A DNA stretch of 56,304 nt from a virus. Its lineage: Duplodnaviria; Caudoviricetes. This document shows, piece after piece, positions 21,585-49,984 of the stretch. The DNA is taken from positions 1 to 56,304 of the IMG/VR virus record IMGVR_UViG_3300006922_000026. The stretch is one strand, 5' to 3'. The notes under the pieces are model-generated. The model was not told where the DNA came from. It ran no database searches and worked only from the letters and a program-made list of their open reading frames with translations. Position 1 is the first letter of the stretch, and the number at the start of each line of letters is the position of its first letter. The translations under genes and the position numbers were made by a program.

Positions 21585-21723
21585 TAATTGCCCTCCACAT
21601 GTATTTACCGTAGATCGAATCAGATTTCACCAGGTACAAAAATCTGACGGTCACATTAATTTGTTACGTTTAAATGTTGGTTTTTTGACGGTCTGGTGAT
21701 TTAATCAGTACATAAATATGTGT

Positions 21724-23772
21724 ATGAAATACATAACTCACTGGGCAACTGCCTTACTCACTTTAGCATTTCTTACATTCTACGGATATTCAGATCCATA
21801 CGTTAAACAAATATTAAGATTAAAAAGTTTTGATGTTGTTCAACGTTCCGATACTCCTGTGATTAGCGAAGATATTGCTATACTTGAGATAGATGAGAAA
21901 GCGATTGAGCAGTATGGACAATGGCCTTGGAAACGTTCAGTACTTGCAGATGTTATATGGAAGTTGCGTGAGTCAGGTGCAGGAGTAATTGTACTACCTA
22001 TATTGTTTTCAGAGGAAGATAGACTTGGTGGTGACATGGAACTTGCTCAAGCAATAGCCGGGAACGCTGTTGTAATTGCACAAGTAGGAACAACTCAAGC
22101 AAACAAGAACGCAGTACCAAGAGGTGTTGCCAAGATAGGTGATCCTATGCCTTGGTTATTTGAATGGCCAGGTATGTTAGGACCAATAGAGTTATTAGGA
22201 ATGAACGCTGATGGTGTTGGTGTTGTAAACACTGTACCAGAGATAGATGGTGTTGTACGTAGAATGCCACTTATAATGCGTGTAGGTGATGAAACATATC
22301 CTGCAATGGCAATAGAAACAATACGTGTTGCTACAGGCGATCCAAGTTATCAAGTTAAAACAGAACAAGGCGGCATAACAAAAATGCGTGTTCCTGCATA
22401 TGCAACTATACAGACAGATGCTAACGGACGCATATGGTTACGTTGGAACAAACAATTTCCAACATATAGTTTAGTAGAAGATGATTACACACAACTTGCA
22501 GGCAAGACTGTTATTATAAGTCCTACAGCAGAAGGACTCAACAGTATCATTGCTACACCTAACGGAGAACGTTATTCACACTTGCTAACTGCAACAGCAT
22601 TGCAAACAATTATCAATGGCGATACTATTGTTAGAATGGACTATGCTACGTTTGTAGAGTGGGCAGGAACTGCTTTACTTGGTCTTATAATCATCTTAAT
22701 GGCTCTTAAAACACCGTATTGGCTTGTAGGCACTGTTATAGTTGCTGTACCAATAAGTGCTGTGTATGGAGCATATTTTGCTTTTACAAGGCATTTACAA
22801 CTATGGGATTGGAGTTGGCCGGTGATTGTAGTTGTAATCGTCGGATTACATGCAGTGTTTAATAGGTTCGCAAAAGAGTTCTTTGAGAAACAAGCAATTA
22901 AAAAACAGTTCGCAGGATACGCATCTCCAACAGTTGTGCGTATGCTACAAGAGAATCCAGCACTAATCAAAGACGGTATGAAGAAAGAAGTTAGCATACT
23001 GTTTTCAGACTTACGAGGCTTTACACCATTAGGTGAATCATTTGGTGATGATGTAAAAGGCCTAACAAAAATTATGAATGGCTACATGGACGCAATTACG
23101 CAACCTGTACTTGATGCTGATGGTATGATTATTAAGTACATCGGCGATGCAAGTATGCACATACATAATGCACCGATAGAAGATCCTGAACACCCTAAGA
23201 CAGCAGTTCGTACAGGATTGAATATGTTAACAGCAGTGGAGAAATTTAATGATAAAATCACAGCAGAAGGACGGCCGCCAATTGGCATGGGAGCAGGCAT
23301 CAATACAGGACTTGGCTATCTTGGAGAAATGGGTAGCACCGCAAGACATTCGTACGATGTACTCGGAGACGCAGTCAGTACAGCCGCAAGAATCGAAAGC
23401 AAATGTAAAGAATACGGATGCCTACTATTAGTAGGTGATGCTACGTATAAGCAAACCAAAGACGATTTCTTTTACTTAAAAGTAGATGAACTACAAGTAA
23501 AAGGCAAGAGTGTTGGTATTATTATATGGACTGTGCTTGATGGTATGAATACTAATTCAGATCGCAAGAGTCAGAAAATGCACCAAGAAATGCACGAAGC
23601 ATACAGAGCCCAGAAGTTTGATGAAGCAATATGGATCTGTGAAAAACTAATGAGACACTTTGATGGCAAAATGGAAGGCTATTATAAGATGTGGATTGAA
23701 CGTTGTGAGTTCCAGAAAACACAAGACTTACCTAAAGACTGGAACGGTATAATGATTGCTACTTCGAAGTAG
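21724..23772 (+). CDS. CHASE2-domain class III adenylate cyclase
   Basis: IDEKAI..GQWPWKR and DGVVRR (CHASE2), three TMs, FSDLRGFT, KYIGDA, GINTG, YDVLGDAVSTAARIES; start probably ATG 21724 after ATAAATA. Confidence 0.95.
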   Translation: MKYITHWATALLTLAFLTFYGYSDPYVKQILRLKSFDVVQRSDTPVISEDIAILEIDEKAIEQYGQWPWKRSVLADVIWKLRESGAGVIVLPILFSEEDRLGGDMELAQAIAGNAVVIAQVGTTQANKNAVPRGVAKIGDPMPWLFEWPGMLGPIELLGMNADGVGVVNTVPEIDGVVRRMPLIMRVGDETYPAMAIETIRVATGDPSYQVKTEQGGITKMRVPAYATIQTDANGRIWLRWNKQFPTYSLVEDDYTQLAGKTVIISPTAEGLNSIIATPNGERYSHLLTATALQTIINGDTIVRMDYATFVEWAGTALLGLIIILMALKTPYWLVGTVIVAVPISAVYGAYFAFTRHLQLWDWSWPVIVVVIVGLHAVFNRFAKEFFEKQAIKKQFAGYASPTVVRMLQENPALIKDGMKKEVSILFSDLRGFTPLGESFGDDVKGLTKIMNGYMDAITQPVLDADGMIIKYIGDASMHIHNAPIEDPEHPKTAVRTGLNMLTAVEKFNDKITAEGRPPIGMGAGINTGLGYLGEMGSTARHSYDVLGDAVSTAARIESKCKEYGCLLLVGDATYKQTKDDFFYLKVDELQVKGKSVGIIIWTVLDGMNTNSDRKSQKMHQEMHEAYRAQKFDEAIWICEKLMRHFDGKMEGYYKMWIERCEFQKTQDLPKDWNGIMIATSK

Positions 23773-32926: not shown

Positions 32927-34597
32927 CTATGACTTCGGTGTACTGGTCTTTCTTACTTGCTTGTTCCCTTCCTTTTTTATGTAATTGGTTCCGTCCGGGG
33001 TTTTTTTTTGATCTTCTATCTCTGCACCATAAAAGATTCTGTTCTTGGTATCTGGAAGTTCTTTTGGAGTATCTTCTTCTGGATTCTTTTCTGCTTCTTC
33101 GTTTGCTTTTTCAACCCAATCATTCCATTTGTCTAAGTCGTCTTGAACTTCTTCTGGTATTGGTTGTTCTTCGTTGATTGGTTGTGCATTGTCTGCCTGT
33201 GCATACATTTCCGCAAATTCTTCGTTACGTTCTTCTATAGCACGTTGTTCTTGTTCTTCTTTGAATCCTTCCATTGCCATTTCGTGCAATGTTTGTTCTT
33301 CTGGTTCTTGACCGACGTTATACGATTGCTGAACTTCTTCGCCTTGCCAATCATCATTTTCATCGATTAATTTAGCACGATCAAACTCATAGTTTTGTCT
33401 GTGTGCTTCGTCCCACTCTGCTTCGGTGTAACTCGGGGCTGGACTATTTGGGTTGGACTTCGGGTCGAACTTTCCCGGCGAACCACCTCCGTTCCTATTC
33501 TCTCTTGCCCAATTAAATGTGTATTGTGATGCAATTAGTAATAGTACTGCAAGTGGATCAAATACAAATATAATAACAATAATAACCCATCTTACTGCTT
33601 CTTCAAGTAAGTTGTTGTCTGCGTTCTCGCCGTAAACAAATTCTGCAATGTATTTGATTGGACCTACTTCTGCTTCAAGTTTACGATACTCTTTTTCGTA
33701 TAAAAACTTTTCTTCACGTACATCATCAATCTTAACTTGCTCGTCTTCAATAAACCCTTCAAGTTCATCTACACGACTGTCAATGTCTACTGTCTTAGTA
33801 TTTGCTTGATTACGTAACGTTTGTATTCTATCATTAATTGCTTTAATACTATCTGCATACTTGGCATCAACTGCTTCAAGTGATGTTGTTAGTGTGTTAT
33901 TAATTTTTCTAATTTCTTTTTGTGCTGAACTGGCAACACTTAATTCGTTTGCTTTTGCTTTCTCAACTGCTTGATCATACTTTGTACCGCCGCCTATGGA
34001 TCCTTCAAATCTATCCTTGGCCGCTTTTATGTCTGTGAACTTACGTAACTTCGCTTGATCTAATCTGTCGTTTTGTAGTTTGATTTGTGCTTGTGCATCG
34101 GCTCTGACGTTGTCTTTCTCTTTCTCAATCTGGGCATAAAGATCTTTAAGAGCGTCATTTTCTCTGTCAATAAGGTTATCAACTCGAACATCTTGTCCTT
34201 TCATTAAGCGGTCAAGTTCGTCTTGCCACCTTGTAATTTTGGCTGTTGCTCTGTTTTGTTTGTCATCAAGTGTTTCAATAAGAGCAATCTGTTCTTGTGA
34301 CATGCTTGTTTGTTCAATGTGTGCTTTAGATAAGAAACCAAAGATACCCATGCTTGTAATAAACATAAGAACAAACACTGCTAAAGCAAGGTAAGTTTTT
34401 AACCACCATGTGGCACGATCCCAATACCTGTGTAACCACACCGCGGTAACTAATTTACCAACTTCTAATGATACACCCATTACAATAATGGGAATAACTG
34501 CGGCCGCGAAGATTGCGGCAAGTCCTGCTACGGAATAGTATATTGCAACTGCACTAATTACTAATGCAGTTAAAAAGGTAATGAATCCAAATATCAT
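32927..34597 (-). CDS. Membrane-anchored coiled-coil protein; possible -1 frameshift extension to 32859
   Basis: N-terminal TMs, long coiled coil, EVGPIKYIA/FDPLAV TM, acidic tail ending at an A9 run. Confidence 0.85.
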   Translation of the reverse strand: MIFGFITFLTALVISAVAIYYSVAGLAAIFAAAVIPIIVMGVSLEVGKLVTAVWLHRYWDRATWWLKTYLALAVFVLMFITSMGIFGFLSKAHIEQTSMSQEQIALIETLDDKQNRATAKITRWQDELDRLMKGQDVRVDNLIDRENDALKDLYAQIEKEKDNVRADAQAQIKLQNDRLDQAKLRKFTDIKAAKDRFEGSIGGGTKYDQAVEKAKANELSVASSAQKEIRKINNTLTTSLEAVDAKYADSIKAINDRIQTLRNQANTKTVDIDSRVDELEGFIEDEQVKIDDVREEKFLYEKEYRKLEAEVGPIKYIAEFVYGENADNNLLEEAVRWVIIVIIFVFDPLAVLLLIASQYTFNWARENRNGGGSPGKFDPKSNPNSPAPSYTEAEWDEAHRQNYEFDRAKLIDENDDWQGEEVQQSYNVGQEPEEQTLHEMAMEGFKEEQEQRAIEERNEEFAEMYAQADNAQPINEEQPIPEEVQDDLDKWNDWVEKANEEAEKNPEEDTPKELPDTKNRIFYGAEIEDQKKTPDGTNYIKKEGNKQVRKTSTPKS

Positions 34598-47019: not shown

Positions 47020-47048
47020 ATTATACAGTACTTACGTTACGAAGTCAA
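47020..47048 (-). promoter_or_regulatory. Sigma70-type promoter
   Basis: TTGACT-17 nt-TATAAT. Confidence 0.7.
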
Positions 47049-47067: not shown

Positions 47068-47376
47068 TTATTGCATTGCATTAGACGTTGCACTTTGAGC
47101 CATTTGGTCAACTGTGTCATCGCCTTGTGCTGGGGGAGTTACTTCTTCGCCGCCTTTTAGTACGATACCTTCTGGATCAAAACTTGCTACGAGGTTTTTA
47201 ACTACTGGATCTTGATCGTACACTGCTTTGAAAGTTTCTTGATCGTGTTGTTCGCCACCCATGTTATCCATGAATGCATTTAACTCATCCCAAGAAACTT
47301 TCTCAGTTTTGTTTTTTACAAGTAAATTTAAGATTTTCGTTAGATTGGGTGAAGCCGACTCAATTACTTTTTTTTT
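47068..47376 (-). CDS. Probable -1 frameshift C-terminal extension of the 47364..48140 protein
   Basis: Frame open from A AAA AAG site to 47068, with no ATG/GTG/TTG for the first ~35 codons. Confidence 0.65.
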   Translation of the reverse strand, partial: KKKVIESASPNLTKILNLLVKNKTEKVSWDELNAFMDNMGGEQHDQETFKAVYDQDPVVKNLVASFDPEGIVLKGGEEVTPPAQGDDTVDQMAQSATSNAMQ

Positions 47377-48140
47377 GAGTCAGTGCCTCCAAGTAAAGTA
47401 CCAATGCGTCTTGATCGTTCAATTGACTCACGTGTGGCTCTGCCGGCTTCTTCTTCGCCGCCTGTTGCTGGCTCTGCCGCCGCAAACTCATCTTCGCCTT
47501 CCGCTGGTGCTTCTGCATCTGCGTCAACTGTTGGTTCCATTTCTGGATCTTCTTCTGCTGGTGCTTCATCGCCCATTGTCTCTGGGGCACCCTCGCCTGT
47601 CAGTACGGCTACGCCGCCTGTTAATGCATCTCGTGTAGTTTCGAGTGTAGTGAATAAAGCCTCAAGTGCAGGTTTAACTGTACCTATAAATGCTTCTGAT
47701 TGCTCAGAACCCATTTCGTCTCTAATTTTGTCGCCTATTTCAAGCATTGATTCTGTTTGCATTTCTGCTGTGTCTTCCATCCAGCCTGTAACTCTATCAA
47801 CCATGTCCTTTGCGGCCATAACCAATGTTGCTTCTTCTTCAGCGCCTTCTGTAATTGGTGTTTCTGTTTCTATGTCGCCTTCAACAATATGAGCTCTTTC
47901 GTCAATTGCCTGATTAATAACTTTTAAGAACATATTTTTCTTTTGGTAATCTGTGTTACCTACTGCATCAAATGATTCGTTAGTTTCGATATCGTGTAAT
48001 GCTGTACGCAATTTGTTTCTTGCGTCCATCAACTGATCTGTTGAAAATTTATCTACGTCTATTGTTTCCCCGAATCTTTTGTCCAAGCTCTCATTAAGGC
48101 TCTTTACTGTGATCGGTTTATTAAAATGGCTTATTCTCAT
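47364..48140 (-). CDS. Acidic late (probable virion/assembly) protein
   Basis: 258 aa with acidic linker; late promoter upstream; ends at A AAA AAG TAA. Confidence 0.85.
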   Translation of the reverse strand: MRISHFNKPITVKSLNESLDKRFGETIDVDKFSTDQLMDARNKLRTALHDIETNESFDAVGNTDYQKKNMFLKVINQAIDERAHIVEGDIETETPITEGAEEEATLVMAAKDMVDRVTGWMEDTAEMQTESMLEIGDKIRDEMGSEQSEAFIGTVKPALEALFTTLETTRDALTGGVAVLTGEGAPETMGDEAPAEEDPEMEPTVDADAEAPAEGEDEFAAAEPATGGEEEAGRATRESIERSRRIGTLLGGTDSKKK

Positions 48141-48162
48141 TGTTTGTTCCCTTTAACTACAT

Positions 48163-48594
48163 TTATTTATCAAAAAGATAGTTCTCAATCTGATCCCTGA
48201 TACGCATACATTCGTCTATTGCAATCTCAAATCTCATCTGCGCCGAATCTGCACGTACTTCGTCTTTTGAATGCTCTACAGTGTACTTATAAAATATTGC
48301 ATCGTTATAGTATTTACTCAATTTCTCCTCTAAACGTCTTATATCTGTCACGGCATAGTCTAAACCGTGTGCTGTGCAATGTGCAACGGCTAACGCTGTG
48401 GTTTTAGACGGGGTAAAAATGACATGCTGTTTATCTATAAGATTGAATACGTGATATCCTTTGCCGTTTTTACGCATAACAACATTCTTAATGCGTATGC
48501 TATTACCTTTTTTATATGGCACTGGATACTCGGCCAGTCCAGCCTCCATAATCTCATTTAAGGTTTTTATTATCTCAGGATTTGTATGCTTCAT
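48163..48594 (-). CDS. Hypothetical protein
   Basis: KGNSIRIK...YYNDAIFY; start tentatively ATG 48594. Confidence 0.7.
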   Translation of the reverse strand: MKHTNPEIIKTLNEIMEAGLAEYPVPYKKGNSIRIKNVVMRKNGKGYHVFNLIDKQHVIFTPSKTTALAVAHCTAHGLDYAVTDIRRLEEKLSKYYNDAIFYKYTVEHSKDEVRADSAQMRFEIAIDECMRIRDQIENYLFDK

Positions 48595-48793
48595 TTGCCA
48601 TAACCAGTACATTACCATTTTTAACTACTTTACTTACTAAGGCCTTACGAATAAGCGATTCAATAACGAATTGCTCTCTTGGCGTATAAGCATGAATAGG
48701 AGTCAAAGACTCCGTAGACATTTGGTTCAATACTTCTGATTCCTCATTGCTCATTGCTATAGTAAATGTTTGTAATAGTTCACGAAGTTTCAT
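48575..48793 (-). CDS. Small hypothetical late protein
   Basis: MKLRELL...SNEE...REQ...LIRK. Confidence 0.7.
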   Translation of the reverse strand: MKLRELLQTFTIAMSNEESEVLNQMSTESLTPIHAYTPREQFVIESLIRKALVSKVVKNGNVLVMANEAYKS

Positions 48794-48795
48794 TG

Positions 48796-49329
48796 TTATC
48801 CTGTAGTCATCTGTTTGATAATTGGATCCAAATCTTTCTTAACATGAACTGTTTTGATTGGTTCGCCTGGTTTGGCTTTTGGGTTCTTGAGTGTTACCTC
48901 ATTACCCTTAACGGCATCTATTTCAAAATCTTGTTGCTGTCCTTGTGCATCTGGCATCGGAAGTACTGCTCCCGGTTTTAATACTGCCTGTGCCATCTTT
49001 CCAGCAACTGCCCCTTGTGCTTTGTTCAATGCCTTAGTTGCAAGTTTTTGTGCGGCGCCTTTAGCACCTTTCGCGGCAACCTGACCCATCTTTTGTCCAA
49101 CTCGTCCAGCGGCTTTTACACCTGCCTTCGCGACTGCACCTGCACCTTTGGCCGCCATCTTGCCCGCGGCCGCGGCACCTTTCATTGCTAACTTGCCTGC
49201 CGCACCTGCGACTGCACCTAACATTGCTGGGATTGCCTCGTTAATTTGTTCTTCTGTGTAATGAGGATACTTCTCTGCAATAATTTCTCTTGCACGTTGT
49301 TCAGTAATTGTAAACTCGTTATATCTCAT
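48796..49329 (-). CDS. Ala/Gly/Lys-rich late protein
   Basis: MRYNEFTITE; AGK-rich amphipathic segment. Confidence 0.75.
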   Translation of the reverse strand: MRYNEFTITEQRAREIIAEKYPHYTEEQINEAIPAMLGAVAGAAGKLAMKGAAAAGKMAAKGAGAVAKAGVKAAGRVGQKMGQVAAKGAKGAAQKLATKALNKAQGAVAGKMAQAVLKPGAVLPMPDAQGQQQDFEIDAVKGNEVTLKNPKAKPGEPIKTVHVKKDLDPIIKQMTTG

Positions 49330-49658
49330 TATCTTGACCTTTTTCTACTTCTTGTTTTAGGTCGAATATTTTTTAAGTTACGTCTACCTGACTTATTAAT
49401 TCTGGTAATACGTTGTGAAATACCGCCTGCTCTTTTTCTACGTGCTGATGCAATCTTCATTGCACTGCCACGTCTTGCCTTTGCTCTCTTTATGTTAATC
49501 GAACTTTGTACTCTTTTAGGTTTGTTACATGTTTCTGGCTTTGCAACAATACGTCCTTTACGTGTGCCACTTGTGCATCTGTATTTACGTACAATCTTGC
49601 CACCACGTCGTCCTGCAATCTGTAACGCACCCTCAGTAATTATCTCATTAACAATCAT
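49329..49658 (-). CDS. Very basic protein (paralog 1)
   Basis: RRGGKIVRKYRCTSGTRKGRIV..PETC. Confidence 0.8.
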   Translation of the reverse strand: MIVNEIITEGALQIAGRRGGKIVRKYRCTSGTRKGRIVAKPETCNKPKRVQSSINIKRAKARRGSAMKIASARRKRAGGISQRITRINKSGRRNLKNIRPKTRSRKRSR

Positions 49659-49984
49659 TTCGGTCTCTTCTTAATGTTTACACGTTTGCTTGGGTATTTA
49701 AACCCTGCTCCAGACCTGTTCATAGTTCTTACTCTGATACTTGCTGGATTAGTACGTTTAGTTCTTCTTGCCTTACGTGCCATTCTTGCTCCAAGTCTGG
49801 CTCGTGTTTTCTTCATGCGTATCTTTGCTTTGATATTAGGTGCCGCAAAGCATTGTCCTATCTTAGATACAATACGACCTTTGCGGTGCCCTGTAGTACA
49901 ACGATACTTGCGGACTACTTTCTTTCCAGAACGTGCCCATATCTGTTTTTCTACAAGAGATGTGATAATATCTTCTACTAACAT
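49655..49984 (-). CDS. Very basic protein (paralog 2)
   Basis: RSGKKVVRKYRCTTGHRKGRIV..IGQC. Confidence 0.8.
   Translation of the reverse strand: MLVEDIITSLVEKQIWARSGKKVVRKYRCTTGHRKGRIVSKIGQCFAAPNIKAKIRMKKTRARLGARMARKARRTKRTNPASIRVRTMNRSGAGFKYPSKRVNIKKRPK

Follow-up and report, generated by a model that had tools for sequence, protein, structure and literature searches.

Near the 3′ end of a 258-codon gene on the minus strand of an uncultured marine phage, whose whole assembly (one contig of 56,304 bases) we refer to as the window, lies a run of nine A at 47376..47368 that comparison with related loci indicates to be a real, conserved, and unannotated programmed recoding site. Some form of programmed recoding appeared to be the sole reading that accounts for the data, with standard decoding giving a short protein and a shift into the -1 frame adding a domain encoded behind the run. 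The site seems to belong to a known class of poly-A slippage sites, and the shift is probably transcriptional, not dnaX-like; the level of the shift, the ratio of the two products, and their function are what we infer from these comparisons. The features of the junction in the window (nt, nucleotides; ORF, open reading frame; aa, amino acids) were as follows.

47364..48140, minus strand: 0-frame ORF of the short product, 258 aa, C-terminus ...GGTDSKKK
47368..47376, minus strand: run of nine A (TC-A AAA AAA AA-G), the putative recoding site
47367..47373, minus strand: in-phase slippery heptamer A AAA AAG, formed by part of the run and the next G
47364..47366, minus strand: 0-frame stop TAA, 1 nt past the run
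47380..47382, minus strand: TGA closing the -1 frame, 3 nt ahead of the run
47386..47390, minus strand: GGAGG, 12 nt 5′ of the heptamer, limited to the close clade of the window
47068..47367, minus strand: -1-frame continuation (VIESASPNL...SNAMQ), the C-terminal domain of the predicted long product, 99 codons plus stop

Specifically, the 258-codon ORF ended in GGA GGC ACT GAC TCA AAA AAA AAG TAA. Past the run the -1 frame read LKKKVIESASPNLTKILNLL... up to a stop at 47070..47068, and across the junction it gave KKK-VIESASPNLTKILNLL...; its first ATG, GTG, or TTG was the ATG at 47271, 32 codons past the run, and the predicted long product comprised 258 + 99 = 357 aa. An earlier note, written from the letters of the window alone, had described the end of the ORF, the heptamer, the GGAGG at 12 nt, and the TGA followed by an open -1 frame, all of them correctly, and its proposal that a -1 shift at the A run yields a short form of 258 aa and a long one of 357 aa found strong comparative support. 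Taken singly, the nine-A run was within chance, as A/T runs of nine numbered two in the 56-kb, 37.5% G+C window against the ~1.2 expected under a third-order Markov model; the excess over chance lies in the conservation of the run across relatives.

Conservation of the run and of the frame behind it

Relatives of the 258-aa ORF were numerous (4643 database proteins at E ≤ 1e-3; 550 relatives from viral contigs), and the longest viral contigs that carried one reached 190 kb. A C-terminus made up of KKK and 0–7 further residues was present in 117 of the 120 best relatives. Two sets of 80 viral-contig loci were assembled, giving 161 sequences together with the window; 160 of these reached the 0-frame stop and collapsed to 90 distinct 300-nt contexts, the first locus set comprising 48 distinct contexts. 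At least nine A (9–11) were present at the junction in 89 of the 90, with A9 in 79 contexts, A10 in eight, A11 in two, and A6G in one. By the base that follows and the codon phase, the runs were distributed in this manner.

A9 followed by G, codon phase 2: 68 distinct contexts
A9 followed by G, codon phase 0: 4 distinct contexts
A9 followed by C, codon phase 2: 7 distinct contexts
A10 followed by T, codon phase 2: 8 distinct contexts
A11 followed by G, codon phase 2: 2 distinct contexts
A6G-AAA, codon phase 2: 1 distinct context

Of the 79 distinct contexts with A9, 72 had G as the next base and seven had C, and T followed A10 in eight. Lys codons within the run were all AAA, and the columns flanking it were conserved at just ~30–65%. 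The 0-frame stop was located 1–22 nt past the run in the first locus set, and the -1 frame opened 3–147 nt ahead of it (median 25 in the 90 contexts). One added base was needed to reach the frame of the C-terminal domain (C domain) except in the A11 loci (L155–L157, two distinct sequences from three samples). There the C domain was in the +1 frame, requiring one base fewer or two more, and the -1 frame (L155, L157) read KKKK-stop.

Both the A run and the -1 ORF were therefore kept in related loci, a point that the earlier note had left to homologs, and the homopolymer error that it had considered was excluded: contigs from one DNA run (another sample) and three RNA-library runs (two studies) spanned the run without an indel, and its length recurred across the contexts given above.

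Some loci had more than one such junction. Two A9 runs, 24 nt apart, were present in L121–L125, with the -1 frame closed in between, and duplicated junctions were also present in L041, L044–L046, L048–L050, L052, and L061, the L041 group having A9 and, 21 nt later, GCA AAA AAG TAG. In groups with duplicated junctions the distal heptamer decayed (A7, A6, none) and one A9 stayed; in L067 and L070 the second heptamer had decayed to GTA AAG or TCA AAG with the A9 intact. Two candidate sequences were set aside: P0147 has the appearance of an assembly that is chimeric or inverted, and P0032 that of a frameshifted call.

The downstream frame was start-less near the junction and coding. No ATG, GTG, or TTG was present in the C-domain frame before or within the run in any of the 90 contexts; the first start was a median of 30 codons past the run, at least 20 codons past it in 57 of the 90, and as far as 89–92 codons in for five loci of the first set. 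In every locus with enough contig this frame encoded a conserved ~100-aa domain: 29 sequences aligned at 34–90% identity, and hidden Markov model (HMM) matches to the C domain were recovered in 79 of the 80 second-set loci, the exception being one in which the contig end cuts the domain. Within the start-less stretch, synonymous changes made up 39% of the differences in the -1 frame versus 11% and 4% in the other frames, which indicates that the stretch evolves as coding sequence, and purifying selection was evident on both reading frames across 34–94% protein identity. The long product is absent from annotations because gene callers begin the downstream part at an internal Met, giving a truncated 'hypothetical protein' of ~67–75 aa.

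We gave very little credence to gene breakage, misassembly, or a phase-variable tract at the DNA level, under which part of the phage population would carry a functional in-frame fusion. One in-frame fusion was recovered (P0267, 376 aa, junction ...SPKKKISKSL...), and homopolymers are prone to replication slippage. P0267, however, was a singleton cluster from one contig, and a search of close relatives for a longer, fused form recovered none, which constitutes weak evidence. Moreover, the C domain could be placed in 158 related loci and was never in the 0 frame there, and neither the four other runs' contigs, free of an indel at the run, nor the purifying selection on both frames would be expected of such a tract. 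On these grounds, sequencing error, a pseudogene, and frequent DNA-level switching appear very unlikely.

A separate gene in distant relatives

In five distant viral contigs (L162–L166), the orthologous locus had the C domain as a separate gene with its own ATG, which overlapped the upstream stop as ATGA in four of the five and came one base after it (TAAtATG) in one. The first gene of these loci ended in ...LLVGR-stop or similar, without the KKK tail. The flanks of L162, the one locus of the five for which they were listed, contained the same upstream 147-aa gene and the same downstream exonuclease and Mtd_N-domain genes. Elsewhere, the profile search placed the C domain in stand-alone proteins of ~105–125 aa and, N-terminally, in larger ones of 261, 463, and 771 aa. 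The independent start in homologs that the earlier note had raised against its own reading was thus found just in distant L162–L166; the clade of the window has no start there, and the ATG of the distant loci does not refute recoding in that clade.

These loci bear on the possibility that the downstream domain is a separate protein throughout, produced at the junction by termination-reinitiation or from a non-canonical start and never fused, with the A-rich run serving as a ribosome-binding or standby site. Beyond the ATG of L162–L166 and the many stand-alone proteins, six of the 90 A-run contexts carried GTG or ATG 0–5 codons past the run, and five of these six starts overlapped the 0-frame stop (GTGA in L095, L109, and L161; TAATG in L107 and L148). 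These six contexts look transitional. Against independent initiation, 84 of the 90 contexts had no canonical start within five codons of the junction, and the 57 counted above had none for at least 20; the codons after the run varied (GTA ATT, GTC ATA, GGC CTA, GGA TTA, AGA CTA) with no common near-cognate start; and both the retention of exactly nine A and the change of frame in the A11 loci would be left unexplained. We consider a separate protein improbable. The marine clade appears to have arrived at a single recoded gene from two genes coupled in translation, this being the direction of change that we infer.

Polymerase slippage and ribosomal frameshifting at the run

We favor slippage by the host RNA polymerase as the main source of the shift, with a probability of roughly 55%, over programmed -1 frameshifting by the ribosome on A AAA AAG (or A AAA AAA/C) as the main route, which we regard as a credible but distinctly weaker candidate; both may act together. 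Under polymerase slippage, standard reading of the A9 mRNA would give the 258-aa protein ending in SKKK, and the bacterial polymerase of the host would slip on the A9:T9 hybrid such that one A is added, with the A10 mRNAs then being read normally to give the 357-aa long form. A fixed fraction of expression events would in this way enter the -1 frame, adding the 99-residue, winged-helix-like domain, and ribosomal -1 slippage on A AAA AAG may contribute as well.

The constant feature of the site was run length, with at least nine A present where six suffice for a ribosome, and this points to the polymerase at least as much as to the ribosome. The run was in phases 0 and 2 at the recoded gene and in phase 1 at a second site (described below), and the next base was G, C, or T. 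In the A11 loci a -1 ribosomal shift would be useless because the -1 frame stops at once, but transcripts one A shorter or two A longer would reach the C domain. Additionally, other long A/T runs were scarce in the flanks (296 kb, 45 non-redundant loci): 0 runs of at least nine were present versus 14.2 expected, and four of length 8 versus 32.9 expected. Baranov et al. (2005; PMC1088944) describe the avoidance of long runs as a sign that they are harmful, that is, active, in a system, and also give as a criterion the same overlapping-ORF layout and run in non-identical homologs, both elements of which we found here. The RNA-DNA hybrid of bacterial RNA polymerase is described as 9–10 bp, and slippage as efficient in vivo at nine A or T (PMC5009743); in Escherichia coli reporters, values of 10% at 7 A, 40% at 9 A, and 63% at 11 A are given (PMC3711429).

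Hairpins were frequently located directly upstream of the run. Specifically, a hairpin of -5 kcal/mol or lower that ended within 5 nt 5′ of the run was present in 50 of 89 contexts versus 27% of shuffles. In a sub-clade of 22 distinct sequences, the hairpin cells paired in 77% versus 69% in shuffles (0/500 as high), slid controls gave 19–54% pairing, and both sides had changed in four of eight pairs, which lends the hairpin moderate support by covariation, these being counts from related sequences and not probabilities. An 8-bp hairpin with a 3-nt loop, ending 1 nt before the A run, was observed in L020–L068, L113, L130, and others, where it lies within codons for the conserved peptide ...LG.LL..S; its arms co-changed between clades (GGTTTGCT/AGCAGACT versus GGTCAGTT/AACTGATT), and the amino acids changed too.

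Several observations limit the case for slippage by the polymerase alone. The upstream hairpin was weak in the window itself (-3.3 kcal/mol), and contigs from RNA libraries showed an A9 consensus, although such contigs drop a minority of A10. A valid X XXY YYZ heptamer is contained in an A9 of any phase, so phase does not exclude the ribosome, and A AAA AAG was in phase in 68 of the 90 contexts, including the window. In L105 the run was broken to A6G-AAA, and this locus retained just A6G in phase together with an intact C domain. Furthermore, a second in-phase A AAA AAG was present just ahead of the 0-frame stop in the L041 group (nine loci) and beside it in L061. Ribosomes are described as sliding on homopolymeric A in a length-dependent manner (PMC4363877), and the polymerases of AT-rich hosts may slip less according to Baranov et al. 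(PMC1088944).

The in-phase heptamers, L105, and the second heptamers all speak for ribosomal frameshifting, as does the strong tendency to shift that is described for A AAA AAG in bacteria having just one tRNA-Lys (PMC5009743). A ribosomal route would account for the longer run as one that gives several overlapping heptamers or permits the ribosome to slide on poly-A; the GGAGG at 12 nt in the clade of the window would fit it, and the 0-frame stop 1–22 nt past the run could slow decoding. Nevertheless, six A suffice, yet at least nine were retained in 89 of the 90 contexts, and in L067 and L070 it was the second heptamer that decayed and the A9 that was retained. The heptamer carried by seven contexts, A AAA AAC, is weak in E. 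coli. For the A11 loci, shifting by -1 runs directly into a stop, and the domain needs +1 or -2. The Shine-Dalgarno (SD) sequence was limited to one clade, and no conserved downstream stimulator was found.

These last results also limit the dnaX-style reading of the earlier note: its in-phase heptamer stood, and neither a conserved SD nor a conserved downstream structure was found. Of the 48 distinct contexts in the first set, six had GGAGG upstream, all in the clade of the window, two more had GGAG, and one had AGGA. Folding of the 70 nt 3′ of the run gave no structure common to the 48 contexts; the window had a minimum free energy of -3.8 kcal/mol (z = +1.0), z-scores overall were mostly ~-1.5 to +1.5 (range -3.2 to +1.5), and no Rfam frameshift element was matched. 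The note had also seen GACTCAA/TTGAGTC as able to fold around the run. This was not supported, with a perfect 5-bp complement being present in 20 of 89 contexts versus 8.1 in shuffles, and the GACTC/GAGTC pairing may arise because of conserved Ser (TCA) and Glu (GAR) codons.

Finally, the window contained a second site of the same type.

33001..33009, minus strand: second nine-A run, near the 3′ end of a 556-aa ORF (34597..32927)

This A9, at 33009..33001, was the only other run of at least nine in the window and was located 24 codons ahead of the stop of the 556-aa ORF, past which the -1 frame continued for 46 codons after the run, to 32859, ending ...YTEVIEPYTQNAEQHESSHFKDILKRR. The ORF combined hydrophobic segments at the N-terminus with a long part that is charged and helical, and it gave no PHROG match. 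Among 11 related loci, eight kept the A9 at the equivalent place, in phase 1 in seven and in phase 2 in L170, and these eight had a conserved -1 tail of 46–49 codons. In L171 and L172 the A9 was present and the -1 frame closed, and L173, the most distant (39% identical), had no run there and had the homologous tail in the 0 frame. The second, independent site strengthens the view of A9 tracts as a recoding device of the lineage. A broader reading, which to our minds falls just short of an even bet, is that this large lineage of uncultured marine phages would use slippage of the host polymerase on exactly A9 as a regular device, often with a hairpin upstream, in at least two unrelated genes per genome, having replaced a coupled pair at one of them and purged long A/T runs elsewhere.

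The products, their surroundings, and comparable systems

The AlphaFold model of the short product (mean predicted local distance difference test (pLDDT) 72) had N-terminal and central domains made up entirely of helices, an acidic linker that is disordered, and a helix at the C-terminus, and it had no significant fold match in the PDB (Foldseek). The central domain (residues 70–241) matched positions 9–189 of phrog_14154 ('virion structural protein') at E 3e-12, a match that covers the first quarter and not the full length of this 771-position profile; the L162 ortholog matched the same part at E 3.6e-17. We take the match to indicate a shared domain and not family membership. It was the sole match to PHROG, and Pfam gave none for either part. 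Sequence profiles of the PDB had no match to the N-terminal part and, for the C domain, just non-significant calmodulin rows (E ≥ 0.017). The C domain, which ends in a conserved ...MA..A... motif, was modeled with a helix-strand-helix-helix-hairpin topology that fits a winged helix (mean pLDDT 72); its best Foldseek match had an E of 0.067, and the top VIA-align rows were mostly winged-helix and weak (Z 5.3 or below). Prediction of a complex between the N-terminal part and the C domain scored 0.00, which carries no weight either way. Our best guess, held with low confidence, is that the two forms are produced in a fixed proportion and act together as virion-associated or internal proteins.

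The phage encodes a ribonucleotide reductase, a DNA ligase, an exonuclease, a 2OG-Fe(II) oxygenase, and three tRNA genes. The neighbors of the recoded gene were the 2OG-Fe(II) oxygenase, the exonuclease, an Mtd_N-domain protein, and the ribonucleotide reductase. The earlier note had assigned the site to a late gene and likened its products to the tail chaperones G/GT, and neither suggestion was supported: the neighbors were those just named, no tail-chaperone family was matched, and the gene was not located between tail-tube and tape-measure genes. The T4-type late promoter motif, TATAAATA, was present twice in the window versus 5.9 expected, a count that speaks neither for nor against a late gene. 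Overall, family searches, neighbors, and promoter scans of the window gave no evidence of a tail-chaperone role or late expression.

Cultured relatives were distant, the nearest being indicated by a cyclase whose counterparts in Methylophilales phage Melnitz and Pelagibacter phage HTVC008M were 72% and 48% identical to it, respectively, and a DUF6267 protein was ~26% identical to cyanophage proteins. Neither the region (blastn) nor the two ORFs (tblastn) had a match in the cultured-phage collection, and profiles of both parts had none in Melnitz-1 or HTVC008M, an empty answer that shows little. One further feature bounds the recoded unit.

47020..47048, minus strand: sigma-70-like promoter, TTGACT, 17-nt spacer, TATAAT (consensus match only, 11/12)

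It directly follows the -1 ORF and precedes the 2OG-Fe(II) oxygenase gene. On the upstream side, the 258-aa ORF is adjoined by a weak Rfam match to Ocean-VII RNA at 48181–48206 (minus strand; 19 bits, E 0.011, far under the gathering score). Five of six consecutive ORFs at 47364–49984 (minus strand) shared the head M-x-x-x-[E/D/H]-[F/L/I] (MRISHF, MKLREL, MRYNEF, MIVNEI, MLVEDI), most of them with a hydrophobic-x-Glu triplet soon after; stand-alone homologs of the C domain shared this head (MRITEV, MKLNEL, MKLFEV, MKIYEV), and the recoded form had [V/L]-x-E after KKK. These heads presumably resemble two features of T4 internal proteins, the leader that directs them to the capsid and the sites cut by the prohead protease. 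Such a leader and protease are a concept that appears in PMC3012670. In the same region, two adjacent, paralogous, and very basic ORFs of 109 aa (49329–49658 and 49655–49984, minus strand) both contained ...RKYRCT.G.RKGRIV... and had no family match. The sole large plus-strand ORF (21718–23772) encodes the 684-aa adenylate/guanylate-cyclase-domain protein, 72% identical to that of Melnitz, in which the cyclase gene adjoins curli-like genes.

Among known systems, dnaX of Thermus thermophilus has, like the gene here, a sense-strand run of nine A near its 3′ part, and it is described as giving two product lengths at a set ratio with no need for ribosomal stimulators (PMC1088944, PMC5009743). In that gene, however, the short product arises by slippage and the long one is read from the templated frame, whereas here slippage would give the long; the proteins are unrelated, and the gene here belongs to a phage and relies on the polymerase of a host for its transcription. 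In tssM1 of Citrobacter rodentium and in mxiE and spa13 of Shigella, a poly-A/T tract precedes a premature stop, and gain or loss of a base fuses the downstream frame (PMC4256274, PMC1088944). The tssM1 run is A11, with transcripts described as having 10–15 A and a shift of ~20%, and both forms and their ratio are described as required (PMC4256274). The A11, +1-frame loci L155–L157 have the same geometry as tssM1. tssM1, mxiE, and spa13 are bacterial secretion-system genes, in contrast to the phage gene here.

The likeness to E. coli dnaX consists of the A AAA AAG heptamer and, in the close clade of the window, a comparable SD-like GGAGG. The differences are that here the SD is not conserved, no downstream stem-loop is present, nine A stand where six would do, and the shift would give the long product and not the short. 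As in the G/GT chaperones of lambda and many others, a phage gene would yield a short form and a C-terminally extended one through a conserved -1 shift close to its 3′ end; here, in contrast, the slippery site is a long homopolymer, and the extension is a separate, coupled gene in distant relatives. Finally, Roseiflexus IS630 has a hairpin directly 5′ of its slippage motif, as do 50 of the 89 contexts here, some with covariation, and a nascent stem-loop beside the motif is described as stimulating polymerase slippage (PMC5009743). Its motif is U5C5 with loss of C, unlike the A9 of this site, and the hairpin is weak in the window.

No published report of this site was found in a literature search whose coverage excluded subscription journals. 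If the proposed mechanism is true, no earlier case of programmed transcriptional realignment would be known, as far as that search shows, from a phage with double-stranded DNA. Members of the gene family are very frequent in marine data, where the phages that carry them form a very abundant group, and thousands of phage genes would be annotated correctly once A9 tracts are recognized as sites of recoding. Such tracts would also provide a simple rule for finding more sites in these genomes, a rule that appears useful because the second site turned up in the same window. Were the shift transcriptional, the coupled genes, the run with a start codon, and the run alone, together with the A9, A10, and A11 variants, would form a natural slippage series, and these phages would be exploiting the infidelity of the host polymerase to set protein ratios.

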